A model generated the notes under the pieces. That model ran no database searches, had not been told where the DNA came from, and worked only from the letters and a program-made list of their open reading frames with translations. The translations under genes and the position numbers were made by a program. Of a stretch of 64,000 bases of DNA, positions 1,229 through 54,274 are shown piece after piece. Numbering within the stretch: the stretch's first letter is position 1; each line of letters begins with the position of its first letter. The stretch comes from Botryllus schlosseri (Eukaryota): positions 5,644,001 through 5,708,000 of the forward strand of contig CM119371.1 of NCBI GenBank assembly GCA_051294905.1. Reading direction: 5' to 3'.

Positions 1229-1350
1229 CTCTATGGGTTCTCCTGTAGCATTTTCAGAAGAGAAGAAGTTAGATTAGCATCAAAATGAGAGAATCGAAAC
1301 ATTACACAAATTAGACTAAAGTTCTATTGATGGCATTACCGTCTAATTAG

Positions 1351-1925
1351 CAGAGTTGTAACCAAGTCAAAAGGCTCCAAGTCACAAGTCAATCTCACTT
1401 TTATTGTTTTAACTCGAGTCAAGTCGAATCATTTTCAATTCAACAACGGAGTCAAGTTCGAGTCCAAGTCAGTGAGCAGAGGGTCGAGTCCGAGTCATAT
1501 TATTATGACTCGAGTCCTAGTCCAAGTAATTGTGTTAACTGCCCAGTTTCCAGTTAAAGTCTTGTTAACCCCACGTTTTATAACTTTTTTTCATGATAAC
1601 GAATGGTTCCCATTTACAATATATTAATTTTCCTCACTTTTAGCAGTTTCTGGTCGCGTTTTAAAGTAACAGTACCAATAGACGAAGTCCAAATAATGTG
1701 GTTACTTCAGTATTCGTCGAAATTATAATGAAATGTCGGTCTTGGCCGTCTTAATCTCGAGTCATATGACTTGGTTCGAGTCATGCGCAATGACTCGAGT
1801 CCAAGTCGATTCAATACACGGATTTAGTCGAGTCGAGTCGAGTCGAGTCCTTTCCGTACTCTCAGAAAATGACTCGAGTCTAATCGAGTCATCAGAAAAT
1901 CGTGACTCGAGTCATTACAACCCTG
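1351..1925. mobile_element. hAT-type MITE with GACTCGAGTC subterminal repeats
   Basis: TIR CAGAGTTGTAA / TTACAACCCTG; TSD CTAATTAG/CTAATTAA; partial copy ~17870-18109. Confidence 0.85.
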
Positions 1926-2487: not shown

Positions 2488-5400
2488 CAGTGCTTTTCAA
2501 CCTGTGTGACGGTTCGCACTTGTGCGAATGAACAAAATTGCACTGCGAATGACGACGGTGGTGCGAACGGTGCGAATGAAAATCCCGGATGAGTGCGAAT
2601 GAAAATCGCGAACAATAATTGTTAATTTTTCTGACCTGGAATAATTCAAATAAACCTAATTGGAAATTCAAGGGCAGTACAAATTTTGTTGTTGCGACGC
2701 AATTGTAAAAACTTGTTTAACTGACGACACACTACTAACTGCAGCTCTCAGAAGCCGCAGTGAATTAATATTTTCGCATTATAATTATTACGTAACCAAA
2801 AGCCTGGTTTTGAAGCTTGTGTAGTGGCAGACATACAGTATATCAGCCCGTCCGAGCCTGCGACAGGCTGAAAAAATGACGTCAAATTGATTTACTGCTT
2901 TCTTTCGCTAAACAATCTTTCGTAAAAACTGTTCGATTAGTGCGTGGCACGAGGTTAGTAGCATACTAAATACCATCGTTGCTGACTTGCATTTCTAAGT
3001 TATTGTAACGCAAATTTTTACCCCTTAAAGGGCTGTTAAAGTATGGACCGCAAAGGGCATAATTTTGGGTCGACACGGTGCCAGAGCTATATGTTAATAT
3101 GTATTAATATTTGCTGAATTTATAAAAAAAAATCCTGCGACAGTTTTTATAAATCCAACATCACGGTGTTGGATAGCCTACTGTAGCCAATAAGCGAGAC
3201 ACGCAGAAAATATAACTTTGTCATGAGAAGATTTGCCCCACTGCAACGAGCGAGTTCAGGTCTATGAGACTCATTCATTTCGAGACAAACCCTTTCGGCG
3301 TCGGGGCAAATGACGACGCAAAGCTCTGACCAACAAACCGCTGATATAAATGCGGTGCCAAAACATAAGCGTCGACAAAACCTTGGCCGAAAATGACCGA
3401 TGTTGGATGGCTAAACGAATCTATATGGATATGCTCCGTTGTCGGCACGGAATAGTCCCGTTCTTGCAATCTGAGTAGACTGCAGTAGTACAACAACTGC
3501 GACACACAGAGGAATTTAATTCACCCTAATTTGAGATCGCGTGCGTCAGACGTATTTTGTAGAGCTGCGTGGTGGATAGAATTGTGGTGTGCGCGTTCTG
3601 TATGTCATCCATGCCCGTATACTACTGTAAGATTGAGAATGAATCCCTTTTCATTAGCGAGGCTCTGGTTGCGAGATGCAACAAAAACTCAGATTTTGTT
3701 TTTTAGTCTAAAGTGCTGCTGTGACGTTATTAGACTGTTATGGATTCTCAAGTTAGATTTAGCTAAAGAACAGAACACAGGGTATCGTGCGTTTTTTTGC
3801 TCTTCCCACATACTCGCGAGACAGAAATGGAAAATCGAAAAAAAGTTGGGACAACTTATCATAAGGTATCGATCTCTAATGTTCCCACTCTTCTTCATCG
3901 TTTAGACCAGGGGTCTCAAACACGCGGCCCACCAGAGCATTTTGTGTGGCCCGCAGCGACATTTTTGATTTTCATTAATTTGACAATATCTAAGTGTCAC
4001 ATATCTTTTCAGGTTATAAAGTGTAAATTCCCTCTAAGATTGCTCTGAAAGCCTGAAACTATTCATCAAACTTCACTATCACATCGATTGCAAACGCTAC
4101 CATGCAGTGTAAGATTCACTATTTCGCCTCATTTTCACTTCACGATGCTAAAACCTGACACTTAGACGATTCGTGACTGAAATTGTGAGTTGTATTTGGA
4201 CGCGACCTTCCTTAAAATTACTCGAACTCGGGCTGATTCGATGGAAAAATGAAAATGACTCGAGTGGACTCGGAGTGACTCGAAATGCCGTGAATTTGTT
4301 TGAACCATGAACACAACAAACTAATCGGGAATAAATAAATCAGAAGGTCCCAGTTTGGTATTTCGCTAACTATAAGCAAGTAGTTATGGCAACCAGTGGA
4401 AATCTATTAGTTACATATTAGGTCGCTTAGTCGCTGAACCATGTTATAAGGCCACTTCAAGGTACCGAGTACCGTAGTAGTACGCTCCAACGATGGGTCG
4501 TTCGGCGTTCCGACATTTCTATTGCTAGGACGAATTCATTATTATATTGATGTTATATTTATATATTTTTCCGCTCCTATTTTCGAAGATATTTGACCAT
4601 GAAATTAATAGCCTACTTATCAGGAGGATACCCGAATCCTGGATTGGAATTACACTGCCCAACCCAAAAATTTTGTGATATCAGATCAGTCTCTATTATC
4701 TCTCTGTTAAATTCGAAATATCAAAAGGCGATAACTTTAATGATGACATCATACATTTGTCCGCTCATATTGCGTCTATATTTTATAATTATTATATATC
4801 AAGTACAACATGAATTCTATTCAAATAGTTATGAATGTGATGATTTTTTTTCCTGCCGGGCCTAAATTGATACAAGAGTAAATCACATTTTGACGATGTG
4901 TGTTTATTGTCAGCCTGTTGGATCGGCTCACTTTCAATAGGACAATTCCATCCCGTCAAAAAAGGCCTAATTGGAAAAACATATAATACCCCTATATATG
5001 CTGCGGAAATCTGGAAAACTGGAAAACTGGAAAACTGGAAAACTGGCCCGCGAGGACATTTGAGTTCGAGACCTCAGGTTTAGACCTTATTTTACAAGAC
5101 GTAAGGCAAAAGCCTCAACACAAACAAGTGGGCTTTTCATCCTTTCGACATGGAGCCTTTTAAACCTTTTTGTAAGCTCTCAAAATCGATTTCTTCTAGC
5201 AAGCATTTTTCACTCGTCAAAAAATACGTTGTATTTGGGATAGGAGTGCAGAATAGATTTTAAGACCTGGCCATCCAAGCAATTATAGACGTTCTTGTAC
5301 AAAACCCAACAACTTGTTTTGCCGAGAAAGATTTTAGTGAAATTGTTGAAAATAGTAGACTTTTTAATGAGACATCTGATAGCTTAAGATACATAGTAGC

Positions 5401-5530
5401 CAATTTGTTGCAAATCTGAACGTTGTATTTTCATCTTCTTTTTGTATGACAATTTTCGGTTAGTTTGAGCGAATGAAATTTATTTAACAGAAAAAGTGCG
5501 AATGAAGCTCACAAAGAATGAAAAGTACTG
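2488..5530 (+). mobile_element. Decayed hAT (Buster-like) element with transposase C-terminal remnant
   Basis: TIR CAGTGCTTTTCA / TGAAAAGTACTG; TSD TTGTATAC both sides; ~5265-5350 reads DLAIQAIIDVLVQNPTTCFAEKDFSEIV, resembling the hAT dimerisation motif TTYxCExxFS. Confidence 0.75.
3908..5077. mobile_element. hAT (Charlie-like) MITE
   Basis: CAGGGGTCTCAAAC ... GTTCGAGACCTCAG; perfect TSD GTTTAGAC; same family inverted at 38221-40044. Confidence 0.85.
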
Positions 5531-6171
5531 TTGTATACCATCCGTCTATAATCATACGCCAAAATAGAGAATATAATACGAAACTTCAGATAGTTGAAAC
5601 CGATTGATATGATGCAATACCCAATTAGATATCCATAGGATACAATTTAAGCCTGCACCAATGGTTGACGAGTAATAGAACCTATATTCGAATTCAACTT
5701 AAATCATGCAAGAGGCTTTGGCTAAGGTGACCAACGGACACCAATGACCAGTTTAGAGAACAGAGATGGATACTTTGCTATTACAATACTTTCCTATAGT
5801 AATATAGTGCGACTATGCTACTAATACTACAACTATTGTTCGCTGTAAGCTCCAGTCACTTCGTTTGTGGTCAATTTATTGGTGAAAGAACAATAGAGGT
5901 TTGGTAAAACTATAGATAACTAACGCACGGATAGATGCGCAACACCCGTCGTCACCCTTGCTTGCCCGGATGGAATTACTGCTCAGCAATATGAACGCAG
6001 CATAATTGCTAATGCCATAGCTGACGACCCGCGTGCTGAAATTCAATAAAGTTGATCTTGTTTGAAAGCTACTGTCGCACTGATTCCGTAAATGTGCAAT
6101 AAAATCTAATCAGGGCAATGGAACCCTCTTTATATACACCTCAAAGTCTGAAAATCGGCATTGTTCTAAGC

Positions 6172-8091
6172 CAGTGGTTCTCAACCTTTTTTCCTCCAGC
6201 GCCCCCTTTCAAAAATTATCGTGCTCCAGCGCCCCCCACCTCATATTGTAGGGACTGTAATAAAGACAATGGGAGAGAAGGAGGGCCGTAACAACACTTC
6301 GTCAGCCCTCCTAAAAACGATTGTCTTGGGCACCCATAGCGTGATAAACCAAATTCGTGAGGGCGTCGCCCCCAAGAACCCCGTCGCGTGATTTCGATGA
6401 TTTTTTTTATGATGCATGAATTAAATAGGTTGTAATTTCATAAAAATGTCACTATATACTTTTTATCCTCTCAGCCCACACAATCAGATTTACCAGTAGC
6501 GCTAAGTGAGCTGTTGTATTGGAAAAGGAAGGCCACGTAATCAATAATTGAACATATTCGGGCGTGCCCGTTGGTACAATTAAATCGTTACATGTTATTT
6601 TGTTACCTCTTGTCCGCTATATAGTCAAAAGATATTGAAACGCATAAACGTTTAACTAAAGTAACACACGATTCAAAATTGGTATTTCGTCACAGGCAAA
6701 TAATTATTTGTGATGGATGTTATTTGTCCTGCAGGGTCTAGATTGCGACGACATGATAATTCTGCACGAGCGATTTAATCACCTGTAGACGATTAGACTT
6801 ATATACATCGTAGTTTACGCTCAACATAAGGGCAATCCTCTTCGGCTGAAGTTTTCTCGCTGACCATCTTTTTGACACACTTCTCGGAGTCCCATATTCA
6901 CCGGAACTTCATATGTCTTCGTGCATCGTGGCGTGGTAATGGCCGACGCTGAAATGCCTATTTCTATTTTCTATGGCTATTCGTATTCTTCCGTAGGGAA
7001 GTCATCATAGCATGATGTTTAATTTTTGTTCATTGACCGAAATAACTTAAGGCACCCTTCGAGCTAACCGATTGGGGGTTTGGGTTTAAAGCAGTTTCGA
7101 TCTTAGTAATAGGTCAAAGTTCAGTCGGTATTTTGGAGACTTTGGTATTGGAAATATTAAATCGCGCTCGAGGACCATTCGACTATATTAAACCGTATAA
7201 TAATAGTGTGTGGTATATTCAGGGTCAAACCAAGGTTCTTATAACAACAATTGGGTACGGTTTCATACCCTGTGGTTCGGACCCTCCCGAATTCACATCG
7301 GCGATTAGCAATACGGGGAAATTATTGATATTGGATTTTCTCTTAGTGCTTTGTCAACTGAGAATGGGATGCATACATCTGCTCACATTGAATTTAGTAC
7401 TGTACCCAGTTATTTATTTCAACATGAATGTATTCCAAACACAGCAACTCATATTATATAACGTTCATGTGAGGTTGTGAACCACATCACGTGATAGTAT
7501 CATCTTTTATGATACGATGAAGAAATATTCTGACGATTTAATTTTGTAGCTCTCAAATACAAGTGTATTTAGTTATTCAGTTCGTGCACAAAGCTTCAAA
7601 ACTTATTTTATGCAGGAGGGGCTCTCACTCACAATCAAAAGTGATATACAGTGCCTCCTTCTTCGATTTTCACACGCTGAGCACCGCCGGATATAATACC
7701 TAATTCGAAACATTTAGTTGAAAATAACCCTAGCAAACGTGACGGCAGTGTTTTAAATAACGGGGGACTGGCGATCTAAAAGTACGCGCAATTCGTTTTT
7801 TATGAATTATTATAACACACTACATTTATGAAAACATATGTAGCAAACATCATCGTGCAGCGCGACCAAAAATTTGATTTGACATGTTTTGTGGAATGTT
7901 AGTTCGTTCTGAATACTCGTTAAGGATATGACCTACTACCATATTATCTACTGCGAAGCCGTGTTTCATCAGCGCCCCCTTATCGCCCCCCTGAGCCCAG
8001 CGCCCTCCATATCGCCCCCTGATAATTTCCGCCCCCTTCAAAATCGCCAGCGCCCCTTGGGGGCCGCTGGAGGCAAGGTTAAGAACCACTG
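6172..8091. mobile_element. hAT (Charlie-like) non-autonomous element
   Basis: CAGTGGTTCTCAACC / GGTTAAGAACCACTG; TSD TTCTAAGC/TTCTAAAC; CGCCCC subterminal repeats. Confidence 0.8.
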
Positions 8092-15135: not shown

Positions 15136-16096
15136 AATCGCATCTGTAAAAGGTCTCATCGTGCTCAAGATGTCGTGTCGCGAGCATGAGTCCCGTATGT
15201 CTAGTACTCTAGCTTACAACAAGACAGACATCGATTCACCGTATTACGCATCGTGAATGGGTGCGATAGAGGTGTGTCTGTACCGTATATAGTCAATTCG
15301 ATATACGGCGCTTTCGAAAGCTTGGTCATCGCGCGTTGCATACTCAATGCTCGTTGTTAAAGGGGCACTGCGCTCTAAAAATGATGTGGTCTTAAATTGA
15401 AGAAAAAAAAAGAAACATTTTGGCCGCAACCATTTTCTTTAGAACGCCAACGTAAAGGAGCTTCAATTTAATGAAATTTCCACAGGACCAGAACGCTCCA
15501 GCGGTCACGGCTGCGCGTCATTTCTTAACCCGTTACATGGCACTATCGAATGTAAACATTACATTACATTCGATAAGGGCACGATGCCTTCACCGAGGCA
15601 CTTGCTCTATGACGCGATTAGTCAGTCTTGCTGAGAACGAACTTTAGATAGTTGTCAGCCAATGTTATGAAGTAAATATGTTTACACGCCAAGGCGGTTT
15701 AGATACGGCTTTGAACAAACGATGTTGCGATGTTGTTATGAAAAGTTGCGCGTGACGTTGGCCACCAATTACTCTCTGGCGATATAAATTACACCGGTAT
15801 GCTTTTTGTGGAGGCTGAGTTGTGGGTTCAGGTTGGGTTTGCGTACCGTTGGATTACGGTTAGGGATGATGAATTTTACTACAGTACCCGAACCCTGAAC
15901 ACAATTTTGAATGTCATAAATTTTGTCATGTTCATGGGGAACACTGATTGGTGGTATTCGTGTTGTGGATAAGAAATTTCTGTTATCCTGAAAAAACGTC
16001 TACAGTATTGTCTTGCTCCACCCAGAATCTTCATAATAAGTTTGTTCCACTTTGTATTGAGGATATACCAATGCATTGACATTATTGCAAGCTGCA

Positions 16097-16510
16097 ATGA
16101 CAAGATGTGCTGTTACACCGTGTGAAGTTGCAACTAATGACGCAACGCATACTCTTCATAAAATTCCTTATGGAATTGCACTAAGGCGCGAGTGGTTTAA
16201 TGCCATAGGAATCTCGTTGAACAAGATAGAGCAGAAAAGATTCTTGTATGCAGTAGGTATTTCAAGATAGGCGATTATACTCGTCCCCGTAAAGGAGATA
16301 CCTGTTGCAAGCGTCGACGACTTAAAAGGGGTTGGTGGCAATCATCTCTAGCAAACTCTCATGCATATTATAAATGGTTCTCTTGTATTTCTTGATCGAA
16401 GCTGTACCTTCGTTGTATCTTACAAAGCAGTTCTATAAAACCAAGAACGTATCAGATCGGAAATTGACTATAGTTTTGGACAAAGATCAATCTTTGGCGG
16501 AACCTTGTCA
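16097..16510 (+). pseudogene. THAP zinc-finger N-terminus of the Kolobok transposase gene (spliced, frameshifted)
   Basis: MTRCAVTPC..LHKIP..LRREWFNAI, frameshift to ILVCSRYF (C..HF motif with H>Y), then ~70-bp GT-AG intron and AVPSL (THAP AVPTIF box); further small candidate exons up to ~16907. Confidence 0.8.
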
Positions 16511-16957
16511 AGTAAGGCTACATTTGCTTTTCCCTACAGCATGTTGGATTGACTTTTATTCATCTCTGTTTAGGAATCTGACTCAGATTTTATGGGCCCA
16601 ACATGTTCGAAATTGATTGGTAGGAAGCCGACCAAGTCCAAGGTATTTGTTGGTAACTATATTGAAAGTTCCCAAATGCATTATATAACATTTATCTCGA
16701 CAGACCGTTACGCATACAACAGCAATCGAAGAATCTACGATCACTAAAACTCAAGAATCTTGCAATGTAAGTCCTTGTTTTCAATTTCACATGGCAATGA
16801 TTCTATAGAGATTTGCACTGTTTTTGTTCAGTCATCGGATTCAGATTTTATTGAATCGAAATCTAATACAGGCATCAGTAAAGGACGTTCCACGCGCAAG
16901 CTTCCAGTAAGTACACTTGAGTGAATTGATTTGAGAAGGTTACCAGTATACATGGGC

Positions 16958-17210
16958 CCTGTGGATATCAAGCTGTATCAGTTGTATCACTCTGTGGATA
17001 TAAAGCTGTATCACCCTGTGGATATAAAGCTGTATCAGCTGTATCACCCTGTGGATATAAAGCTGTATCAGCTGTATCACCCTGTGGATATAAAGCTGTA
17101 CCAGCTGTATCACCCTGTGGATATAAAGCTGTATCAGCTGTATCACCCTCTGGATATAAAGCTGTATCAGCTATCAGCTGTAGCACGGCTCTATCAGCTG
17201 TATCACTCTA
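16958..17210. repeat. 33-bp minisatellite (~7 units)
   Basis: Unit CCTGTGGATATAAAGCTGTATCAGCTGTATCAC; explains repetitive ORFs 16931-17395. Confidence 0.95.
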
Positions 17211-18286
17211 CCTGTATGGAATCGGTGTCTTGTGTTCAAACAATTCTTGATTTTTTTTATTATTATTTTTTTAATTACTTTAACTTTGAGAATCATCGTT
17301 GCTCCCATATTATAGACGAACCGTACCGAGATTCACCCAGGTATCACTCTGCAATTAGTATCAGGTCTATACTATGTCTGGGATGCGCGAAATAGTCTAG
17401 TAGGCTGTCACACATTTAGTGAATCAGCTCTTCTCGCCTACACGCGCGAAGAAAGAGAAAATTCTATATTTCATGATTGAGTCGGTCAATATATGATCGG
17501 GAATTGCATATAGATTGCTAGCAATTTTTATAACGTCTCTCTGCTCACGTAATCTAATTTAGGCTACCGGCCGGTAGAACTGAGTGAGGTGTGTTTGAAA
17601 AGGTAGGACATACTGTAAGGTCCTGATAGGCCCACTAATTTGACTTGGTTATTGCTGTGCAAGTTGTTGAACAGTAGTTCATACTCTACTTTTATCTTGG
17701 GACACCGTCTTGCTTTCTTTTGCAATATTTCGTTAATATATTTCAGTCCATTAGATCCGTGGGCATGGGCGTGTGACTGGATAGCTTGGGACTCTTCAGC
17801 ATTCTTGTTGAATCCACTTTTTTTTAAACTCTGGTTGGTGACATCAAATGCTTCGCATTCATGTTATACCAATTTTCACTTTTAGCAGTTTCTGATCGCA
17901 TTTTCAAGTACCAGTACCAATAGACGAAATCTCAACAGGTAGGTTACTGTACTGCTCTTCAAATTACAATGAAATGTTGGTCTTGGCTGTCTGAGTCTCG
18001 AGTCATATGACTTGGTTCAAGTCATGCGCAATGACTCGAGTCAATACACAGATTGACTAGAGTCGAGTCATCAGAAAATCGTGACTTGAGTCGAATCATT
18101 ACAATCCTGGTGTCTGATTCCATAGACTACCCTAAGTCGCTTCGACACTTTCCTATCCTTTTATTTTCATTGTATTGCATTTTTGTGGTGTATTGAACTG
18201 ATAAAATTGCTAATATAGACCTATGATGATGACACTAGTTATCGGAGTGTGGTCAGATCACTAAATTTCACACCTTCCGTTTTTAG

Positions 18287-18709
18287 GATCATTGGAAGTT
18301 TATCACAACGTCATACTGGAACTTGCACCTAAACGTCTTCATTTTACTTATGACACGATGCTTGCACGAACCGAACTGGCAGCCCTGGATCACAATGAGA
18401 ATGTTGGGAGGTTTCAGGCAGTGACACGAGAAGGTTTGCTGTGTCCATGACATGTCTGCAAGTCAAGGTACTTGGTTAGTTACTTACCATATATTTGTTT
18501 AAGCAGGTGTTCTACGATTCAAAAAAATTTACTCTCGGACAGCAAAAGAGTGGATCTTGAAAAGCATATATGAAAAGAAGACGAACCACTATGCGAGAGA
18601 GCTTTTGAGACGAACTGTTGAGAATCGCAGTAACCTTTCTAGAAATGTGCATCCAGAACCAGCTCCCTCTACAGAGGAATTACTTTCGAAACGGCGTTCC
18701 CGAACATGA
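18287..18709 (+). pseudogene. C-terminal exons of Kolobok DDE transposase
   Basis: Exons 18287-18433 and 18507-18709 (GT-AG intron) splice in frame: GSLEVYHNVILELAPKRLHFTYDTMLARTELAALDHNENVGRFQAVTRE/GVLRFKKIYSRTAKEWILK...*; LExYH..PKR..LAALDHN is the motif I recognise from this transposase family; central catalytic part absent. Confidence 0.8.
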
Positions 18710-19391
18710 CTGAGATATAATAATCTTTGTAATTCTTTGCCAATGACTTTGTATTGCAGTGCTACTTAGGCAGCTTACTAGCTCCATTAATTTCTTCCAC
18801 ATGTTTCTAGTTACTACTAACTGCCCCGTTGTAATACCCCAGCTATGTTCCAATTGTCTGGTATTTATTAAAAATCAAAATAGCAATGTATGAAACACAG
18901 CAGCCACTGTTGGAATATAGAATGCAGTACACCATACGGAACTGATTTCGACTTATATTGCAGAGCCGCAGTGTTTTTAATCACAGTTCGTTTTCTGTCG
19001 GCCATTTGAAACCGACATACAGTCCATCGTCACTAGGATACTTCTGTCTTATAGCAGTGACGATGCAGGCTGGCAAGGGCATCCGGTTTTTGCTACCCAA
19101 AACTTCGCCATCCATAATCCATTCCAGTATGTGACGATAAGACACCAAGCGATATTGTCTGCAATTGGAAAATCTGAAAGTATACTGCAGCGATAAAAAA
19201 TGCTGAAATCTAATAGCAGCATAGAGATATGACCGAGAATATGATGCTCTCAAATTAAAAAGTGTAGGCATTTTATGGAAAGTATTCGATAATAGGTTAA
19301 GAATGCAGGAAACTGTAGTTCATCTCCAACAACCATGTCACGTCACATATATATAGGCCCAATACTAAACACAATACAAAATGTACTAGGA

Positions 19392-19812
19392 CAGAGGCCT
19401 CAACCCAGCGAGATAGTATAATGGTTATGCGTCCGGCTGCTCGAGCAGTAGGTTGTGGGTCGATCCCCGGCCGGGTCATACCAAAGACTCGAAAATTGGT
19501 ATCCGCAGCTATCCTGCTAGGCGCTCAGCAATCACGTATAGCATGGAGGAGAAAAAAAACGGGGGCGCAGACTAGATGACCTCATGGGGCCGTATCGCAA
19601 CTCCGTCGTCAAAGCATCTTGATGGTGCAGGCGAAAAAGAATATCATCTCTCTCTCTCTCTTAAACACGCGGCCTGCGCGCCGCATGCTGCCCTTGAGAC
19701 CATTTTGTACGGCCCGCGACAGCATTCTGGATTTCGAAGTATTCGTCAATATTTAACTACCAGCAAAAAGTAGGAAATTGGCCCACGAGCACATTCGAGT
19801 TTGAGACATCTG
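19392..19812. mobile_element. Short hAT MITE interrupted in its left TIR by a SINE
   Basis: CAGAGGCCTCAA ... GTTTGAGACATCTG; TSD TACTAGGA/TTCTAGGA. Confidence 0.7.
19404..19660 (+). mobile_element. tRNA-derived SINE
   Basis: A box TAGTATAATGG (19414-19424), B box GGGTCGATCCC (19457-19467), central GGTCATACCAAAGACT..AAATTGGTA..CCTGCTAGGCGCTCAGCA domain, (TC)n tail. Confidence 0.8.
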
Positions 19813-19917
19813 TTCTAGGACCTACTTGTTAGAAAGTCTTCTGCCAGGACCGTGCGGTTGATTGTTATTATTCCAGTTTTTTCTGTTCACTTTGAAAAAT
19901 ATTTCAAGAATGGAGGG

Positions 19918-20546
19918 TTACGTACCAATTTATCGCCTTACTACCGTAAGCATCGAATTTTGCGAGTTGATGAACTGTATCGCTTCGAAGTATCAAAAGT
20001 TGTTCACAAATATTTTTCCAATAGTCTCCCTCCTGTGTTTGATGACTTTTTCATACCTGCTAAACATGTCCATTCCCATTACACGAGATCTTCGTCTAAA
20101 GGAAACGTCTACTTACCCCAATCCAATAGCAACCTAACTAAGAGATCTATCGACTACTCGGGACCTATCATCTGGAATGCATTACCATCACATATCCGTG
20201 AATTGCCTTATAATAGATTCAAAAAAGCCCTACTTGATCACCTCTTGTCGTTACACTAACACTGTTGCCCTACCCCGCCCAGACATTGCTTCATTGATCA
20301 TTTGCTACCAGCATTGTTTAATTTTTTTTCTATTTTCCTTTCCTAACTAAACACTTTTTTACAGCCAGACTGTTCTGAGTCAAGTGTACCTGTTTGATGC
20401 TGGTGTGATCAGACTAGATGACCTTCACGATCTTATCGATTATTCCTATCTAATACCGAATACTGTGCACGCATATTTTCTGTACCACCATCATTGCCGT
20501 TTGTTATGTATTTTGGTTCGATGAAAATAAAGACTCTCTCTCTCTC
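19918..20546 (+). mobile_element. 5'-truncated CR1/L2-like LINE (family 1): ORF2 C-terminus + 3' UTR
   Basis: ..ILRVDELYRFEVSK..HSHYTRSS..RSIDYSGPIIWNALP..FKKALL* typical RT C-terminal end; AATAAA + (CT)n tail; near-identical copy 25976-28276. Confidence 0.85.
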
Positions 20547-21443
20547 TTGTATATGTAGGATAAAATCGTCATGTTCTGTTATGCAAGGCGACCCTCCATT
20601 CCCCAGCAGCTCCATTATTTGTTGTATTTCCCTGCAGCAAACACACTCATTCTCGTTTGGCATGCGTGGACAGTTCAAGCAGCTGCACCATTCATTGTCA
20701 AGTGTCCGAAGTTGACTCTGGTTTTATGACGATTCCTCCGACCAATACAATAACATTGATAAATTGCATTTAAGAAACACAGTGCAATACTTACAGAGAC
20801 ATGAGTTTGTGTTTCTTGAGTTGCAACGAGACGGGCAAATTCCTCCTCTGAATATTGTGGTTCGAATTGATACGGCATGCTCTCACCAAATATCGTGATA
20901 TCTTCTACATCTGTGTCTTCATCAGAAATTAATTCATCACACAGATCTTCTTCCATACCAGTAATAATGTTAACAAATTATACATTATCTACGTGTCAAA
21001 GGAATTGCATAAATGAACTGATGGAAACAAAAATTCATTTGTGAAACTGAGAACAACATCATACGATAAAAATATCACACAATATTTGTACAAGCCTGTC
21101 TGCATTCGTTCTCGACTTGCAACTCAACGGCGCTTCTTCGAAGTACGATCCAAAACAAGCCAATGTCAATCGTGCAACCAATGCTATCCATGAACAGTTG
21201 AACACGATAGACAGGTTGTGTAGAGCAAAACGGAGATGAATATGGCCGTTATAGGACTGCATTCAAGTACAATTTTGTAAACATAGCTATTTTATTACAA
21301 TATCCCATCACTACATGGCCGGTTTCAACTGATAACGCCACAAAAGCTATAAACCGGTGACATGGTCGACATTGCAGATTCAGTAGTAAGGAGAATTGCC
21401 CCGTGGACCTTTAGGGGCTGAGGGAAAGGAAGACACACTACAC

Positions 21444-22297
21444 CAGTGGTTCTCAACCTTTTTGTCTTCGCGGACCCCTTTCGGACCGTCAACGACCCCC
21501 GCGGACCCCCACGAAGTTTAGTTCAAATTTAGCTCAAATATCGTGCAATCGTCGTCTGTCTTGTGCAAATGATAACTGTAGGCTTAGTAGGCTTAGTGAT
21601 AAACAGCAACAAAATGACTTTTCTTGAAAATAAGATCATACACTTACTCATGTAGAAAGTGGATTGACTATTATTTCAAAGCGAATTCTGCAACTGCATT
21701 TCTTGAAATACGTGATCGTGTCTTGAAAATCCACCCCTTCGATTTGATATGAACATTGAACAAGTGCCGAAAATCCATTTCCATAAATATAGGTGGCGGC
21801 GAATGTAATAATATCGCGTAACGCTTCCGACGACGCATTTGGGTATGATCGCAACAAATGTGGCACCAAAATGACATATAATGAATATACAACGTCAAGC
21901 CTGGTCATTTCTATCTAGCAGCTTATCTTGAAGTTATTATGGAAAAAGTGGTCGTGTGTATTACAGAAGAAAAATGATTTTTGTTAACATTTCGAAGTCA
22001 CCGTCATTGACCTTTCTCGTCAAACGTTTTTTCCACAATCCCCAACAAAACATCTCTAAATTGCAAAATGTTTGTATCAGTAGGCTATGGGCAATTTAGC
22101 AATTAAAATGAGCTGCACAGTGGGATATTTCATCTCAGATGACGATTCAATTGATGTGAACTCTGGAGTTTTTCGAGTAATGAAGCGAAACTGCCTCGTG
22201 ATTTTCCGAATTTTTAAAATATACAAATTAGGTTATCAACTATTTTGAGGCTTCGCGGACCCCCAGGGGTCCGCGGACCCCCGGTTGAGAACCACTG
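21444..22297 (-). mobile_element. hAT (Charlie/Buster) deletion derivative
   Basis: CAGTGGTTCTCAACC / GGTTGAGAACCACTG; perfect TSD CACTACAC; - strand FW..SYP....ALR..ITFAATYIYGNGFSAL hAT dimerisation remnant. Confidence 0.85.
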
Positions 22298-25126
22298 CAC
22301 TACACTTTCATTTGAAATTAGCCGAACGAAGTTTCCAGACAATTTTTGAAATATGAACAACCCTTCTGTGCAGTCAGTAATACGCTGTAAAATCACTGCT
22401 TAAAATTTACAGCTGTATGAATAGCTTTGCATCAATATATAACTGCAATGGCATCTCAATTGTCAGCATCAGTCATCTGGCAAATATTATAGAGTCATAA
22501 CAAGCTTCAGACACAAATCCTCCTGACTTAACATTGTACGCTGGTTGAGCGCCGGTACCGTACGCTTATACTTGACGTAACTAAACCGCCCTGGCGTGAG
22601 ACATAATTCCTCCATAATATCGGCTGACAACTGTCTGAAGTTCGTTCTCTAAGTGACTGCCTTATCGGGTCGAGCAAGTGCGACAATGAAGATAACGAGC
22701 AATAAATTTTGTCAACGGGTTAAGAAACGATGACGCACAGCCGCGACCGCTGGAGCGTTCTGGTCCTGTAGAAATTTCATTAAATTGAAGCTCCTTTACG
22801 TTGGCGTTCTAAAGAAAATGGTTGCGGCCAAAATGTTTCTTTATTTTTTTTCTTCAATTTAAGACCACATCATTTTTAGAGCGCAGTGCCCCTTTAAGCT
22901 GTGGCATTATTAGTTGAGCTTTGGACATTAACACATATATCGGCAGGTGGGTATTATGGGAAATAAGGAAGTTGTTAGTCAGGCTTATTCAGATAACTTA
23001 GTTTGTTGTATATTTTGCATTGGGATAATAGTGCTTCACATACTTGTACATGTACAGACTAACTGAGCACTGGATTTTGAAAAAACTTAACTTGAATTGG
23101 AACTAGCATTACTGACTGTGAATCGCAATCAGAACTAGGCTTTCTTCAGTAAAATCCGCAATCAGTGGACTATCAACTAACTATGATCATAGTTCGTACA
23201 ATCTACAAGTTTGGAGCTTTCTATAAAAATCAAGTTATCGTGATTTCAGAATCTCGCCTAACAAATCGACATACTGTTTACGGAGGCCTCAGTCAGATAT
23301 ACTTTCGATGCAACCTGCCATTTTTTGTGTTAATCATCATTTATTAAAATACACCACAAAATTGCGATATAATGAAAAGATAGGATGGTGGCGAAACTAT
23401 TGAGAGCAATCTTTCGGTCAGACACACACCTTGGCCTACATGCAAATAATAAGCATGCACACTGCACACTGAATTTAAGAAAGGATATCCAGTGGTACTT
23501 TCAAAATATCATGTTAGATAGAACCTGATATTGTGCTGTGTCAGACAATTTGTCTATTCTTTTACTAGTTTGTGTATTTGGTGTTTGATTTTTTGAAGTT
23601 GTGTTAGTATTTTCTCAATGACTCCGTGTAAAGTGTGCTAAAATCTTGAAGTTTAGTCCTACCATCCTTTGTAGCCAGTGCTGGGATCAAGTCAATATCT
23701 CCGAGTCTTTTCCAATTCATACCTACTTGATATCCATCAACAATCAGTGCTCCCCACAAATTAGTCGAAGTCATGCGGTACTTATAATTGGTTTAGGGCA
23801 GTCTTGGGCAACCAGAGAACTTTCAGCTTTTCTAAATAGATTAGAATTGAATTATAGCTAAGCCGTCACATTTCTTTCCATATAAGATAAGAATTAGAAT
23901 TTCTGAATTCGCAAAAACTTGAAAATTGAATCAAGTTAGTTCAGTTCATATAATCCAGAGTTGATTCTCATGAGCATGTGAAGGTCAAATGTTTTTTCAG
24001 CAAACTTGAATTGTGTCGCACTATACAGTTCTCCTGCTGTAATTTCGAAACAACTTGAAATTAACTTAAAAATAAAATGAGAGCATAGAAACATTTCCCA
24101 TATTCATTTAGAATTATAATTATAGAGAACAAATTAGATAAAAAATTAAATTACCGGCATTTCGCTCTAATGACTGTAACCAGACAGCTAGAAGCATGCA
24201 TTCTAATCGGACATTTTTGCGATCACATTTTCGCCATCCCCAGATGGCGTACGCGATGATAAGACCTGATAATAATCGCCCTGCAGGATAATTCGGGTGA
24301 ATTAAACTCCCCATGCCTCACAGCTTCAATGGTTGATGAAAATATAGCCGAAATAGACTCTAGGTATTTTGAAACATTTTTGAAACCTTCTTGAAATGTT
24401 TGAAAAAGATTTAAAACGTTAATTATTTGCGGGGAAAGGTCATCACTACGAATTTTTTGTGCGCAACTTAGATGTTCTATTCGCAGAGACCGTGTTATCA
24501 CTGCGCATTTGCGCACGTGCGCAGCTTGATGGGTACATTGACAACAAGCATTGTTACTGGAGTTCTTGCTCCATACGCTCAAAATTGATTTTGTCTAAAC
24601 TTGGTGTACGGCCTTTTTTCATCTCAGTTGACGCCTCTAATCTCAACGAGGTGAAGAAGTTTGGTTTATTACCCTATGGGGGGGGGGGGGGGGGGGGGTA
24701 ATACCAACGTTTTCGGGGGGGGGGGGCGGGGCGGGCGAAGTGCTGTTTCGGCCCAGAGTAAAGGTAAACCTAGACCTACGCTGTCGTGAGTTCAATGAAC
24801 CACTTTCTAAGAACAGGGAGTTGCTGGAGATGATTGTTTTTGGCAAAAAGTATGGAATGTGATACTCCACGGCACGTATAAATAAAAAGTATGTTCAAAA
24901 ACGCTTTTTCATGCTAATCTAATTTTTCTACTGTCCTTATTTTTGGGTCCATGTCGATGGCAACCCTGTATATATTACTTGCCTGATATGATACAAAAGA
25001 CGTACATATATCATGATAACGATAACGTTAATAAAAAGGAAGCTATGACAGGTTACTCCAGTTGCAATGTAACACGATAACATGCCGCTTACACTGACTG
25101 AAAAACCTTACCGGCAGCGAAATTTG

Positions 25127-25742: not shown

Positions 25743-26201
25743 CTTTGGGGCTCTAGCTATGGAAGGAAAGGAGGACGTGGTTTATTTTTGTCATTGATGT
25801 TTTTGCGGCATAAACACCGACTCATGATACACATACACACGATCTGCGCATATGATTCGGAGTACTTTATGCTGTAGCTTTTGCAGTGGCTTGAGTGCAG
25901 TTTTACTGGCAGCCCCCCAACACAGGATGCCATAATGTAACTTCGATTGGATTAGGGATAAAGAGTATCAGAAGAATCCTGCAGAACCGTGCGATACGGC
26001 TGATCTCATCTGTATCTTTACGTACCAATTTATCGCCTTACTACCGTAAGCATCGAATTTTGCGAGTTGACGAACTATGTCGCTTCGAAGTATCAAAAGT
26101 TGTTCACAAATATTTTTCCAATAGTCTGCCTCCTGTGTTTGATGACTTTTTCATACCTGCTAAACATGTCCGTTCCCATTACACGACAACTTCGTCTAAA
26201 G

Positions 26202-26371
26202 CAGTGGTTCCCAACGTGGGCGATATCGCCCCCCAGGGGGCGATTTGGCGATCCAGGGGGGCGAAAATGACGAAGGGGGCGACAGGGGGGCGAAAATGGA
26301 CAAAGGGGGCGACGGGGGGCGAAAATAGCGAAGGGGGCTATAGGGGGGCGATGACGCGAAAAATCGGCTGA

Positions 26372-26402
<31 letters not shown>

Positions 26403-26522
26403 GTCAACCCGCCGGTGATTACAGTCTGTGTGCCCAATTATCGGTGCACAGAATTTGGGGGGCGATGATCGGTGTTGACCTTGAAAAGGGGGCGATGGGT
26501 CGAAAAAGGTTGGGAACCACTG
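26202..26522. mobile_element. hAT MITE with GGGGGCGA subterminal repeats
   Basis: CAGTGGTTCCCAAC / GTTGGGAACCACTG; perfect TSD GTCTAAAG; empty site visible at 20094-20101. Confidence 0.92.
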
Positions 26523-26829
26523 GTCTAAAGGAAACGTCTACTTACCCCAATGCAATAGCAACCTAACTAAGAGATCTATCGATAACTCGGGACCTATCAT
26601 CTGGAATGCATTACCATCACATATCCGTGAATTGCCTCATAATAGATTCAAAAAAGCCCTACTTGATCCCATCTTGTCGTTACACTAACACTGTTGCCCT
26701 ACCTCGCCCAGGGCCAGACATTGCTTCATTGATCATTTGCTACCATTGTTTAATTGCTTTTCTATTTTCCTTTCTTAACTAAACATTTTTTTACGGCCAG
26801 ACTGTTCTGAGTCAAGTGTACCTGTTGAT

Positions 26830-28118
26830 TAGGGTTAGCTCGGATATCAATAATTTTCACTATCCGGATAACGGATATATCCGGATATTTTGGAATTTAT
26901 CTAACCGGTTAACCGGATAATAACTACTAAGTGAGACAATCGATTTCATTAGGTCTGCATGTAAAACGGATCGCAAAATCATTACACAGATTGTAGAGTA
27001 CCTACCTACGCGCGCAGTATGAGCGAATACGAGAAAGACCACGCAAATTTAATGTTCACTGCTTCTGCAATGCCCTCTTTTTAAAGCACAGATGCATCAA
27101 TTGTGGAATCCTGTAGCCGGGACCGGAATTTTGTAACAAAGAGTCCACGTTCATTGAATGCTTTTTCAGCTTCCACAGAAGTGGGCTGAATAGAAAGCAG
27201 CGCTTCGTAGAGAGTCAAAAGGTTGGCAGGTCGTACCCCGGAAACTTCAACGGCTTTACATCCTTTTGACCATCCTTATGTTTGGAGTACTAGAAGAACG
27301 ACTAGTTGATACTGGAATTGATGCCGACATGATACCTCGCTCTAATTCACGTGATCAGGCACGCAGCCAGCCGAAAATGTAGGGGGATTGATATAAAGTC
27401 AGTGGGTTTCGATTTTTTTTTTTCGAATTAATCATCAGCGGAAATCAATTACGCTTGCACGCACGCACATTTTTGCGAACATTCGATGTCATTCAGTTTC
27501 GCGGTGTCACTCTCAGAATCACTAATTAGAATACACTTAACGGCATATCGTCAACAAGCCATCGAGAGATAGGAGCCAATGCATGCTGGGTCCGAGATGG
27601 TTAGGCCAGCGATTATATCGTTCGTATAGGCCTATTGCAGATACGATTGTGTAGGTCAACGATAATATCGTGAGCACCAAGCCAATGAAGATGCGATTGT
27701 GCAGGCCAGCGATGGAATAGTTTGTACACTGCACAAGTGCACATGGCCTATTGCAGATGCGATTCTTCAATCCAGTGGCACTATCGGCTTGTTGAAGACG
27801 CGATACATCAGGCCAGAGACGATAGCCGAGCGCGCGGCAATTAATGACCTAATTTAACGATCTTCTCAGCAGGAGATCGCGTCACTACATTGTGCGATGT
27901 TTACAGACGGATCTTGCTATTGGCAACACGCTTCTCGTTAATCGGCCGCGCTAACACTGAATACGACCTATTGAAGCTTACTAAAACGTGTAAAATGCAT
28001 TAGAAACGATTCTTTTTTATCCGGTTAACCGGCAGAAAAATATCCGGATATCAGATAGTGAAAATACCTGCGGTTAACCGGTTAACCGGTTAACCGTTAT
28101 CCGGATAATCCAACCCTA
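26830..28118 (-). mobile_element. hAT (TAGGG-ended) deletion derivative with transposase remnant and nested MITE fragment
   Basis: TAGGGTT / AACCCTA; perfect TSD CTGTTGAT; ATCCGGAT/TAACCGGTTA repeats; - strand ~27080-27260 LYEALLSIQPTSVEAEKAF..GLFVTKFRSRLQDSTID. Confidence 0.85.
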
Positions 28119-29017
28119 CTGTTGATGCTGGTGTGATCAGACTAGATGACCTTCACGGTCTTATCGATCATTCCTATCTAATACCGAATACTGTGCACGC
28201 ATATTTTCGGTACCACCATCACTGCCGTTTGTTATGTATTTTGGTTCGATGAAAATAAAGACTCTCTCTCTCTCTCCCATGCTCACATGAAGCGGCTAAG
28301 GCTGTAGAACAGGCCGCACATCTTAATTTATAAATTGATAACTCATCATCAAGAATGACGCACAGGCACAGAAAACATTCCGCGCTTACCAATTTACTTC
28401 CTACATCTCATTAGAACGCGATTTTTCTCTATGCTCAAGCGGCAGAGAATGCATCTTGGCGACAGCCTTCCCAAACTGCCAAAGCGGAACGATCGCTAGT
28501 GTCTACACTACACCACCTTAGAACACTATGGTTTTGCGCAGTCAATGGGTGTGATGGAGGTGTGTCTGTATCCTGTGCCGGATTGTAAAATCGATATGCG
28601 GCACTTCCGAAAGCGATACTAAAGCGCGTGCGTAGTAATAGCAGTAGCACAGATATTGTTACGTGAGTATTCTGGAAAATTGCCGGTCAGTACAAGTAAG
28701 GCTTGTCCTGATAGCTTGCTATATGTTATGTTTTGTATTGATATAATAATGCCTTGTATTATTCTGGCTGCCAGGTTTCTGGAATCTCGTCAATGACATC
28801 TACATATTGCAGCAACTTGCCTAACACTGATTGCTAATTTGTTGATTTCGCCACTACCTAACAATGTGTTCTAGGCATGCCTGGAGAGAAACATAGAGAG
28901 AGAGAGAGAGAGAGAGCGCAGACTTGTTCCAAATACCAATCTAGTTAGTTGACGGTCAGCTAGATACTGTTCTTCCAAGAAGTTCTAGTTAATGATTTTG
29001 AATAGTGGGCAGTTCTA

Positions 29018-41962: not shown

Positions 41963-43013
41963 ATGCACATGCATCTTTGGTGGATTGATACCAGTGCCTT
42001 TACTGTCGGCAAATCAGTTCAATTAGCTTTGAATGCATTTCAACTCGGAGCCTTCAAAACAAGACGGTGGCATTTATGGATTTCATAAGAAATCTCCAAA
42101 GGTCAACGACAGGACTAAGCATGGTGATCCTGATCTTGAGAATCGGCTGCAAGTAGTTCGCGTGTAAAAAAATGCTCATAAAGTAGAGTTGTGTATAAAT
42201 AATACCCTGAATGATGAATATCACGCAACATCAACGACTATTATTGGTATCGTAATTAATCATGTTTCATAGAACTCCGTTGTGTACAGCTGCTCGTCTG
42301 CTTCGTCACCATTTCAGACATGCCCGTGTCAAGCATATTAGCATTAGACATGCATTCATTTTGATAAGTGAGGTTTGAGTCGCGAGATGATAATGCCACT
42401 CAGATTCGGGTAGTGGTCGTAAACGTTGAAGAACCATTGGTGTTTAACGTGACCAAGGCCATGGTGCCCACTCCGACTCCCAATCGCCTGGCCAAACTGA
42501 GCTGATGGTGTCACACTTGCTCCAAAACTGTTTTGAATCTAATATTCAGTCATCCCGGGGACTTATTGAAGACAGAGTGAATTAACAGTTTGGTATCTTG
42601 GAGTTGAAATCTATCGAACGATCAAGTTGTAAGCCTGAACGTCCCAAATGTTCTACCCGCAACCAATATCCGGAAGCGAATCTGAAATGTAATTGTGATC
42701 CACAAAGTTTGTGTGAAACATCTATAAGGAACTACACGTCTGAATTGTCAGGTTACCGATCATCACAATGCCTAATAATTCTACTAAACTAGTAATATGA
42801 AATCATAAGTTTGTTATTCTTGGATATTTTTATTTATCACACTGCTCCGTTTTTGCTAATTTTTCTGTATTTCAGACTGAGTTGCCATAATATTAGAATT
42901 ATAATACTATTTAATAGCGCAACCAAGCTATCGTTGGATCCTCGTTTTCAAGCAGAGAGCGTTTGATGTGGGATGCTTCAAGAAGTAAAGTAATATACAT
43001 ATAATCCAGAATA

Positions 43014-44558
43014 ATGACAAGGAAGATGTGCTCGATCTGTGGAAAGAGCTTCCATCGTAAGGACGGATTGAAAGCTCACTTGCAATTCCACCTTAGCCTT
43101 ATAGATCGAAATACCGAATGTGAGATATGTGGAAAAACCTTTGCTGCAATCACTTTATTGAAAAAACATTTATTATCCCACACTTTTTTGAAAAATCATG
43201 AACGCAAAGAGTTTGGTCCGATTGGTCACTTGAAAAGACTTGCTGATGCACGTACTGCTCACCTTGGAGTCAAAAACCACGACTGTGAGATCTGTGGAAA
43301 ATCGTTTGTACGGGTTGGCGACCTCAAAACACATGGAACTATCCATACTGGATTCAAAAACTATGCATGTCTGATCTGCGGAAAAGCGTTTACCCGGCTT
43401 GGTCACTTGAAACAACATGAAAATACACATACTGGAGTCAAAAATTATGAGTGTCAGATCTGTGGGAAAGCGTTTACCCAGCTTGGTGCCTTAAAAACAC
43501 ATGGAAATACACATACTGGAGTCAAAAACTATGCATGTCAGATCTGCGGAAAAGTGTTTGCCCATCTTCATCACTTGAAAAGACATGAAAATACACATAC
43601 TGGAGTCAAAAACTATGCATGTCAGGTCTGCGGAAAAGCGTTTTCCCAGCTAGATACCTTGAAAGAACATGGAAATACACATACTGGAGTGAAAAACTAT
43701 GCATGTCAGATCTGCGGAAAACTTTTTGCCCGGCTTGGTGACTTGAAAATACATGGGGATGCACATACTGGAGTCAAAAACTATGCGTGTCAGATTTGTG
43801 GAAAAGCGTTTACCCTGCCTGGTAACTTGAAAAGACATGGAAATACACATACTGGAGTAAAAAACTATGCGTGTCAGGTCTGCGGAAAAGCGTTTTCCCA
43901 GCTAGATACCTTGAAAGAACATGGAAATACACATACTGGAGTCAAAAACTATGACTGTCAGATTTGCGGAAAAGCGTTTACCTGGCTTGGTAACTTGAAA
44001 CAACATGAAAATACACATACTGGAGTCAAAAATTATGAGTGTCAGATCTGTGGGAAAGCGTTTACCCAGCTTGATGTCTTAAAAATACATGGAAATACAC
44101 ATACTGGAGTAAAAAACTATGACTGTCAGATCTGTGGAAAAGCGTTTATTCAGCTCAGTTACTTGAAAAGTCATGGAAATACACATAGTGGAGTCAAAAA
44201 CTATGCATGTCAGATCTGCGGAAAAGCGTTTTCCCGGCTTTGTGACTTGAAAAGTCATGGAAATACACATAGTGGAGTCAAAAACTATCTATGTCAGATC
44301 TGCGGAAAAGCGTTTTCCCGGCTTTGTGACTTGAAAAGTCATGGAAATACACATACTGGATTCAAAAACTATGCATGTCAGATTTGCGGAAAAGCGTTTA
44401 CCCGGCTTGGTAACTTGAAACAACATGAAAATACACATACTGGAGTCAAAAACTATGCATGTCAGATTTGCGGAAAAGCGTTTTCCCGGCTTGGTAACTT
44501 GAAAAGTCATGGAAATACACATACCGGAGTCAAAAACTATACATGTCATGTAACTTGA
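43014..44558 (+). CDS. Tandem C2H2 zinc-finger protein (17 intact fingers)
   Basis: 514-aa ORF of CxxCGKAF..LK.H..TH units with TGVKNY linkers; polypyrimidine-AG acceptor ending at 42875 upstream; no effector domain seen. Confidence 0.93.
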   Translation: MTRKMCSICGKSFHRKDGLKAHLQFHLSLIDRNTECEICGKTFAAITLLKKHLLSHTFLKNHERKEFGPIGHLKRLADARTAHLGVKNHDCEICGKSFVRVGDLKTHGTIHTGFKNYACLICGKAFTRLGHLKQHENTHTGVKNYECQICGKAFTQLGALKTHGNTHTGVKNYACQICGKVFAHLHHLKRHENTHTGVKNYACQVCGKAFSQLDTLKEHGNTHTGVKNYACQICGKLFARLGDLKIHGDAHTGVKNYACQICGKAFTLPGNLKRHGNTHTGVKNYACQVCGKAFSQLDTLKEHGNTHTGVKNYDCQICGKAFTWLGNLKQHENTHTGVKNYECQICGKAFTQLDVLKIHGNTHTGVKNYDCQICGKAFIQLSYLKSHGNTHSGVKNYACQICGKAFSRLCDLKSHGNTHSGVKNYLCQICGKAFSRLCDLKSHGNTHTGFKNYACQICGKAFTRLGNLKQHENTHTGVKNYACQICGKAFSRLGNLKSHGNTHTGVKNYTCHVT

Positions 44559-54124: not shown

Positions 54125-54274
54125 GGTTATTGGATGTTATAGCTCAGTGTCTCGTCGGAGCCTGTCGACTCTTCAGATTCACTGTGTACCTTCTTTGCTT
54201 TGGTTTGTTTACTTATTTCATCGCTGCTGGTTGAGGCACTTGGTCTTTTCGGTGTTCCGCTAGACATCAGCGAG

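Follow-up and report, generated by a model that had tools for sequence, protein, structure and literature searches.

Kolobok DNA transposons are described as duplicating TTAA upon insertion and as carrying RR..YY termini, unlike piggyBac elements (PMC9587614). The originally described families (Kol0; type family Kolobok-1_XT; Kapitonov & Jurka) encode a transposase together with a second protein, KolX, and are reported in the same source from vertebrates, annelids, cnidarians and sponges. KolX is similar to human P2X7 over residues 476-595, a region that forms the cytoplasmic ballast and contains two zinc ions and seven conserved cysteines, and both P2X7 and zebrafish Nanor probably descend from KolX (PMC9587614); some piggyBac families encode a KolX-like second protein without most of the conserved cysteines (PMC9587614, Data S6). 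For T2-MITE (MITE, miniature inverted-repeat transposable element) and XKol elements, the terminal motif is given as AGGRR and the terminus as AG, and Kolobok transposases are stated to carry THAP, DDE and H2CH motifs (PMC6004289). Here, a 64,000-nucleotide stretch of the Botryllus schlosseri genome (assembly GCA_051294905.1, contig CM119371.1, positions 5,644,001 to 5,708,000 of the forward strand; hereafter the window, numbered from its first letter) was analyzed. The window is eukaryotic DNA of approximately 40% G+C, rich in transposable elements, and contains between two TTAA a 7,533-bp element (15361-22893) that we regard with high confidence as a Kol0-group Kolobok DNA transposon, which inserted at TTAA in older repetitive DNA and then decayed.

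Element ends and gene remnants

The two TTAA copies (15357-15360 on the left and 22894-22897 on the right) were read directly from the sequence, and the duplication that characterizes Kolobok insertions is therefore present on both sides of the element. The element starts with AGGGGCACTGCG, and its other end is the exact reverse complement of that sequence, giving termini of the form AGGGG...CCCCT and thus of the RR..YY type. The left terminal inverted repeat (TIR; 15361-15534, plus strand) begins with AGGGGCACT, and its right counterpart (22714-22893, minus strand) was delimited by using an inverted-repeat search and a MAFFT alignment, in which 161 of 170 columns were identical across the 174 and 180 nt of the two ends. 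The inverted-repeat search resolved the ends into a perfect 54-nt block, a 123-nt block with 96% identity, and a 71-nt block with 79% identity. Weaker inverted similarity (about 80% in the MAFFT alignment) continues past the TIRs to approximately 350 nt, which on the left side corresponds to about 15707, and BLASTN gave 79.3% identity over 353 nt. A chance inverted repeat was rejected, given that a perfect 54-nt repeat is not expected by chance in 8 kb. A preliminary description of this locus had proposed a TTAA duplication, AG..CT termini and long TIRs, all of which were recovered here. No second copy of the element was found by BLASTN elsewhere in the window. One contig from sequencing run X1 joins 15360 to approximately 22908 with 15 letters in between that are like the first bases of the right flank; because the element flanks are themselves repetitive, this single contig is probably a paralogous empty site with one TTAA and gives weak support.

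On the plus strand, the element carries the remnant of a transposase gene. Its first exon (16097-16330) holds the ATG and a THAP zinc finger, recognized by using Pfam THAP and a family THAP profile, and is followed by four linker exons placed by GT..AG borders and reading phase (16402-16511, which starts with an AVPSLY box, 16574-16642, 16704-16766, and 16832-16906). The exon with the last catalytic E (18287-18433; GSLEVYHN...LDHNENV) and the last exon (18507-18709, with a TGA ending at 18709) were both recognized by the family transposase profile. In the sequence as read, every exon is bounded by GT..AG and the reading phases are consistent. The region of the four linker exons (16402-16906) is without conservation in relatives. 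Two of these exons share an initial acidic motif, (E/S)SDSDF (at 16574-16593 and 16832-16851), and the DNA around their acceptor sites forms a direct repeat of 81% identity, which together suggest that an exon duplication lies behind this pair.

The THAP exon reads C-x4-C, then HKIP, then REWF. The family THAP profile was built from those library relatives in which the N-terminal motif is present (35 of 150), and was searched against the 3,455 stop-to-stop open reading frame (ORF) pieces of the window. Its best match was at 16061-16267 (E 4.1e-5, profile positions 1-48) and its second best was in the consecutive frame at 16201-16392 (profile positions 52-85). Given that two consecutive frames were matched, the THAP domain was considered real, with a 1-nt frameshift at approximately 16225-16240. 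The zinc-binding His of the C2CH motif is changed to Tyr (VCSRYF), and the AVPTIF box reads AVPSLY and is split from the THAP exon by a 71-nt GT..AG intron. An N-terminal THAP domain is thus present as a damaged remnant.

The transposase profile (82 relatives of at least 560 amino acids, 710 positions) matched the window at three places only, at profile positions 4-43 (E 0.098), 573-620 (the 18287-18433 exon, E 1.4e-20), and 626-703 (the 18507-18709 exon, E 7e-8). Profile positions from about 44 to 572 were without a match in the window, as were residues 1-170 of the relative P0001. In place of the catalytic core stands filler sequence (16925-18273), in which a tandem repeat with a 33-bp unit (16957-17172) is accompanied by dispersed repeats, copies of which were found by BLASTN elsewhere in the window. 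This filler was matched neither by the transposase profile nor by tblastn with 11 relatives, whose matches in the window consisted of the E block and the tail only. Approximately 530 of the 710 profile positions are therefore missing, among them those of the zinc finger and of both catalytic D residues. Because the core positions are unmatched, and only the last third of the catalytic domain, with the E block, remains, the window copy is a non-autonomous remnant. Of the spliced THAP-DDE transposase proposed in the preliminary description, the Kolobok homology held, resting on the E block and the tail, and the term DDE says too much for a copy in which only that block and the C-terminal tail survive.

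The KolX gene lies on the minus strand and was traced by comparison with P0003, an ENA protein encoded on a contig of 1,019 bp, which represents an unspliced read-through of a related KolX copy. Exon 1 (20956-20795; 78% identity to P0003) contains the ATG, an acidic N-terminus and PYQFEP, and a PY.FEP motif also occurs in KolX exon 1 of the metagenome relative L022. It is followed by the 59-nt GT..AG intron 1 (20794-20736), placed by sequence and by a contig joint. Exon 2 is divided into a 5' part (20735-20547; CxCxxC, CxCC, and CITEH; 82% identity to P0003; Pfam P2RX7_C E 0.046) and a 3' part (19917-19826; 92% identity to P0003 residues 142-177). Intron 2 (19825-19174) has GT..AG ends, and exon 3 (19173-18984) runs to a stop at 18983-18981. 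The two parts of exon 2 are separated by a 629-nt 3' fragment of a long interspersed nuclear element (LINE; 19918-20546, plus strand) with a (CT)n tail, other pieces of which lie at 26018-28275. The KolX reading frame runs on across this insert once it is removed. The loss of roughly 32 codons of exon 2 through the retroelement insertion was considered and rejected, as these codons sit on the other side of the insert (19917-19826). The fourth codon of exon 2 is an in-frame TAA (20726-20724), where P0003 has Glu.

Toward its C-terminus, KolX exon 3 reads ...PACIVTAIRQKYPSDDGLYVGF..., followed by the stop, and the ORF of this exon matched Pfam P2RX7_C at 27.8 bits (cut-off 23.5; E 2.8e-6). Against PDB sequences, exon 3 gave seven matches at E ≤ 10, of which the top four were P2X7 receptors (best 6u9v, E 0.028, residues 549-597). 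A word-index protein search gave no match for exon 3, the PDB sequence search gave none for the 5' part of exon 2, and a search of the ESM Atlas gave no usable match. The gene keeps CxCxxC, CxCC, CIT, and two more cysteines, and its exons align with KolX genes that adjoin Kolobok transposases in relatives. The second gene of Kol0 elements, with its P2X7 ballast similarity and its cysteines, is accordingly present in disrupted form. Its stop and that of the transposase face each other 271 bp apart, and between them lie overlapping hexamers resembling poly(A) signals (18864-18872; ATTAAA on the plus strand and AATAAA on the minus strand), a reading taken from the letters themselves. Two intron-split genes meeting tail to tail, with stops at 18709 and 18981, and a minus-strand cysteine-rich gene resembling the P2X7 ballast had both been anticipated, and both were confirmed.

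As a consequence of the THAP frameshift, the deletion of the core and its replacement by other repeats, and the stop codon and LINE insert in KolX, the window copy is dead and can make neither protein. Since its ends are still 95% alike, an intact relative, should the host have one, might at most mobilize it in trans.

Evidence on splicing came from assembled sequencing runs, of which X7 was guessed to be RNA and X1 was guessed to be DNA. The intron 1 joint (20734>20794, with CT..AC ends on the plus strand) was found in two contigs, one from X7 (depth 84.6) and the other from X1 (depth 7.2). Some KolX copy has been spliced, and this is not firm evidence of present expression. Contigs that skip exactly 19918-20546 were found in X1 (four), X6 (one), and X7 (two), and the LINE insert is thus missing from other copies of the family. 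In the true RNA run X21 (organism B, of which approximately 12% was read), 60 reads fell on the stretch; their depth was limited to bins with the left flank, the nested short interspersed nuclear element (SINE) and a nested MITE, with none on the two genes, and these reads are no evidence either way on expression of the two genes.

These observations bear on the reading that the THAP and P2X7-tail-like sequences are functional or domesticated host genes sitting in old repeats. The GT..AG sites are canonical throughout, a spliced KolX contig exists, and domesticated Kolobok transposases as well as KolX derivatives (Nanor and the P2X7 tail) are known (PMC9587614, PMC6004289). Against this stand the THAP frameshift with its His-to-Tyr change, the missing transposase core, the in-frame TAA and the 629-nt LINE insert within a coding exon of KolX, the position of both genes exactly between intact TIRs with TTAA duplications, and related copies at 80-90% identity. 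Host genes were therefore considered very improbable, and a decayed transposon carrying both of its own genes remains the preferred explanation.

Relatives and two-gene layout

At 72% identity, the 18287-18433 exon matches the end of P0001, a fish protein of 227 amino acids; its identity to P0002 is 69%. P0001 holds the second catalytic D (VTDRS), a DxxH motif, an H..H..C.H zinc finger and the E. Its relatives were collected by using HMMER from a library of 1.84 billion proteins and numbered 3,483 at E ≤ 0.001, 1,589 at E ≤ 1e-10, and 365 at E ≤ 1e-30. In a Pfam scan, five of six full-length relatives began with a THAP domain (P0007, P0011, P0032, P0051, and P0085, with P0015 as the exception). 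An alignment of 30 relatives showed GDGRCDSPG, TDRH, FDVWH, the H/H/C/H finger and HTG.LE to be invariant or nearly so.

By eye, the E block and the tail that follows it were also recognized in Kolobok-2_BF, Kolobok-1_DR, and Kolobok-1_CTe as printed in supplement 1 of PMC6004289. The printed Kolobok_1_BF sequence ends in ...KHTGVLEVYHN, matching the E block of the window, in an alignment that is stated to stop at the last catalytic E (PMC9587614, Data S5). Homology to named Kolobok transposases is accordingly indicated for the retained part of the protein, and the expectation that the spliced peptides would resemble Kolobok proteins was borne out by the protein matches obtained through P0001 and by the printed sequences. 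The name Kolobok was adopted because the published definition of the ends, the motif set and the printed sequences of named families agree.

The same results speak to a piggyBac-type element, which would share the TTAA duplication and, in families with a KolX-like second protein (PMC9587614), something of the gene content. The window termini are AG..CT, and RR..YY ends set Kolobok apart from piggyBac in that source. The transposase remnants match Kolobok proteins, and no piggyBac Pfam family matched any ORF piece of the window. The KolX-like proteins of piggyBac families are without most of the conserved cysteines, whereas the window gene keeps CxCxxC, CxCC, CIT, and two further cysteines. A piggyBac origin is thus very improbable. 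P elements make an 8-bp target-site duplication and encode a THAP-bearing DDE transposase with introns. A P-element-like transposon, to which the N-terminal THAP and the intron-split gene would be suited, can be dismissed given the 4-bp TTAA duplication, the lack of any match of an ORF piece of the window to the P-element Pfam family (Tnp_P_element), and the resemblance of the E block and tail to Kolobok proteins.

The layout expected of an intact Kol0 Kolobok element was examined in metagenome contigs, which were scanned by using the transposase alignment. This gave 413 confirmed stretches, the best 80 of which were taken as loci. A motif filter for KolX-like ORFs selected 48 ORFs in 41 of the 80 loci, and 46 of these ORFs matched Pfam P2RX7_C at E ≤ 0.01 (44 at or above the cut-off; the misses were in L028 and L055). 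A P2RX7_C ORF was found in 39 of all 80 loci, in 32 of the 46 loci with at least 1 kb of sequence downstream of the transposase, in 27 of the 30 with at least 2 kb, and in 19 of the 20 with at least 3 kb. When loci were clustered at ≥ 90% nucleotide identity, 12 of 31 clusters contained such an ORF, including all 10 clusters with at least 2 kb of flank. The 27 of 30 loci and the 10 of 10 clusters lend independent support to the published Kol0 architecture. In all 39 loci the confirmed P2RX7_C ORF or ORFs were encoded on the opposite strand and followed the transposase downstream in a tail-to-tail arrangement. One of the loci, L003, has an extra and much stronger P2RX7_C ORF (1273-1821, plus strand; 96.9 bits) upstream of the transposase and on its strand, beside the convergent KolX.

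Pieces of the window element were compared with the 80 loci by using tblastn. The E block matched 77 loci (up to 69% identity), the last transposase exon 30, KolX exon 3 42 (up to 49% identity), and the 5' part of KolX exon 2 13. None of the 80 loci was matched by KolX exon 1, the 3' part of KolX exon 2 or the first half of the THAP domain.

When the loci were first searched with BLAST, no inverted repeats with TTAA flanks were recovered, and a direct scan of TTAA pairs was used instead. The scan took in all 659 pairs with a spacing of 3 kb or more from the 43 loci that are 5 kb or longer, and looked for RR-starting 16-nt inverted ends with ≤ 3 mismatches. This yielded 11 pairs, compared with 0-1 in each of 20 block shuffles and 0 in the reversed sequences. 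Nine of the 11 pairs, from three clusters, enclose both genes (L004, L006, L013-L016, L022, L047, and L058), which agrees with the earlier proposal that the ends would flank these two genes in other copies; the pair in L050 encloses a transposase without a detected KolX-like ORF. The termini of the complete TTAA-flanked relatives read AGGGGAACT... or AGGAGAACG..., and 22 of the first 26 nt of the L013 end are like the window terminus (manual count on the printed ends). The intact plan, as seen in L013 and L022, consists of a THAP exon, one large transposase exon and a convergent KolX of one to three exons. In L001, downstream of the Kolobok element, a further pair of TTAA-flanked GGTGGGGCTT... 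inverted ends lies approximately 3.2 kb apart (4376-7542); this may be another non-autonomous TTAA element, or may be due to chance.

Given that the KolX gene of the window is broken, its fold was modeled on the contiguous KolX ORF of L013, by using an alignment of 25 KolX pieces that included the three exon pieces of the window. The model had a mean predicted local distance difference test score (pLDDT) of 73.1 (80-94 in the core blocks) and a predicted template modeling score of 0.68. In a Foldseek search against the PDB, ranks 1-14 were all P2X7 receptor structures (E 0.0097-0.1, probability 0.99-1.00, query-normalized template modeling scores of 0.41-0.46), and the probability fell to 0.04 at rank 15; no PDB match reached E ≤ 0.001. 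The model supports the published claim that KolX has the ballast fold, without proving it for the window copy.

Several points weigh against the assignment to Kol0 or limit how it should be read. Splicing of the transposase introns is a prediction from their GT..AG borders. The THAP exon scored below the Pfam cut-off (E 0.0039, 18.4 bits against 23.9), and the second of the two THAP-profile matches was weak (E 0.11). The placement in the lineage depends on KolX being present and on a visual comparison with a small number of printed sequences. The sole spliced KolX contig from a guessed-RNA run has its joint repeated in a guessed-DNA run. The motif filter detected no KolX-like ORF in three of the loci that have 2 kb or more downstream (L017, L050, and L075), and the fold test was done on the relative L013 and not on the broken gene of the window. 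Finally, the TIRs of the window element (174-180 nt, with weaker similarity to about 350 nt) are long compared with the approximately 10-35 nt of complete relatives.

Nested insertions and neighboring repeats

Besides the LINE fragment, the element contains two further insertions. One, of approximately 430 nt with a tRNA-like SINE head first, lies in KolX intron 2 (about 19376-19809) and is absent from the P0003 copy; ARAGORN found no tRNA gene in the element. The SINE itself (19396-19662, with the tRNA-like head) and the LINE fragment at 19918-20546 both end in a (CT)n tail, and this common tail suggests a SINE/LINE pair with a common 3' end. The other is an 864-nt MITE (21434-22297), read from the sequence by its ends CAGTGGTTCTCAACC and an 8-bp duplication CACTACAC, and would be hAT-like by the length of that duplication. 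Loose read ends fall at 22297/22298, the edge of this MITE. Its word depth was very high in every DNA-like run, and of the four bins in which X21 reads fell, two lie within it.

Elsewhere in the window, an apparently full-length non-LTR retrotransposon (LTR, long terminal repeat) lies on the minus strand at 50837-55375, with a 1,099-amino-acid ORF containing endonuclease and reverse-transcriptase domains. It also has a 366-amino-acid upstream ORF without a Pfam match, and a strong AT skew (-0.25 to -0.37) occurs there. Three adjoining minus-strand ORFs at 59239-62278 (reverse transcriptase, RNase H and integrase) make up an LTR-retrotransposon pol split by frame changes. A 517-amino-acid open frame on the plus strand (43005-44558) encodes 13 C2H2 zinc fingers and may represent all or part of a host gene.

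Significance and comparison with known systems

The link between KolX and the P2X7 ballast and the two-gene architecture of Kol0 have already been published (Kojima & Bao 2022, PMC9587614). The window element is one more decayed copy of the transposon type described then and by itself carries little weight; as a dead copy it does not advance the question of the role of KolX. It does show cleanly, as a worked example, how a multi-exon eukaryotic DNA transposon full of nested insertions can be read from raw sequence.

Intact members of the family would consist of two convergent genes between TTAA-flanked inverted ends terminated by AGG(G/A), with KolX as a small zinc-binding protein of the P2X7 ballast fold. 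From what is known of THAP domains, the N-terminal domain of the transposase would bind the element ends or subterminal DNA, and by analogy with other DDE transposases, the core would excise the element and insert it into TTAA. The P2X7 ballast domain binds guanine nucleotide. As a guess held with low confidence, KolX could be a zinc-dependent, perhaps guanine-nucleotide-binding partner or regulator of the transposase.

A more tentative idea, which we consider possible though rather unlikely, is that the element belongs to an uncatalogued Kol0 sub-lineage, maybe still active in the host, that is marked by ends of approximately 180-350 nt and an intron-rich transposase gene. Hints in this direction are the LINE-free copies in three runs of two organism labels, the KolX contig without intron 1 in the guessed-RNA run, and the 95% identity of the ends. 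If true, such a sub-lineage would be natural material for learning what use a transposon makes of KolX, from which the P2X7 tail is proposed to descend.

In comparison with Kol0, the window element shares the TTAA duplication, the RR..YY termini, the combination of a DDD/E transposase with KolX and an animal host. It differs in that the catalytic core is missing and both genes are disrupted. The N-terminal part of its transposase consists of many short exons, and a further point of difference, as read from the sequence, is that convergent poly(A)-like signals separate the two stops. The Xenopus XKol and T2-MITE elements resemble it in TTAA, in AGGRR and in their THAP, DDE and H2CH motifs (PMC6004289), and the full-length XKol Tr2 of that study starts with AGGGGAACT, which is very like the AGGGGCACT of the window. 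The frog transposases are described as single uninterrupted coding sequences, and KolX goes unmentioned in the passages of PMC6004289 that bear on them, whereas the window copy is decayed and comes from another host.

The nine complete metagenome relatives (L004, L006, L013-L016, L022, L047, and L058) share with the window element the gene order, the convergent KolX and the TTAA flanks. They are 4.4-5.6 kb long (8.1 kb for L047), with short TIRs and an almost intron-free transposase, and at the protein level they share only 37-69% identity with the window pieces. Families of piggyBac with a KolX-like protein have TTAA and the KolX-like C-terminal motif in common with it, and differ in their transposase and termini. 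The P2X7 ballast and Nanor are similar to the window KolX in matching Pfam P2RX7_C, in the pattern of cysteines and in the C-terminal motif ...P.C....IR..(Y/F)P....Y.GF. In P2X7 this domain is the tail of a receptor and Nanor is a host protein, whereas the window KolX is a free-standing transposon gene.

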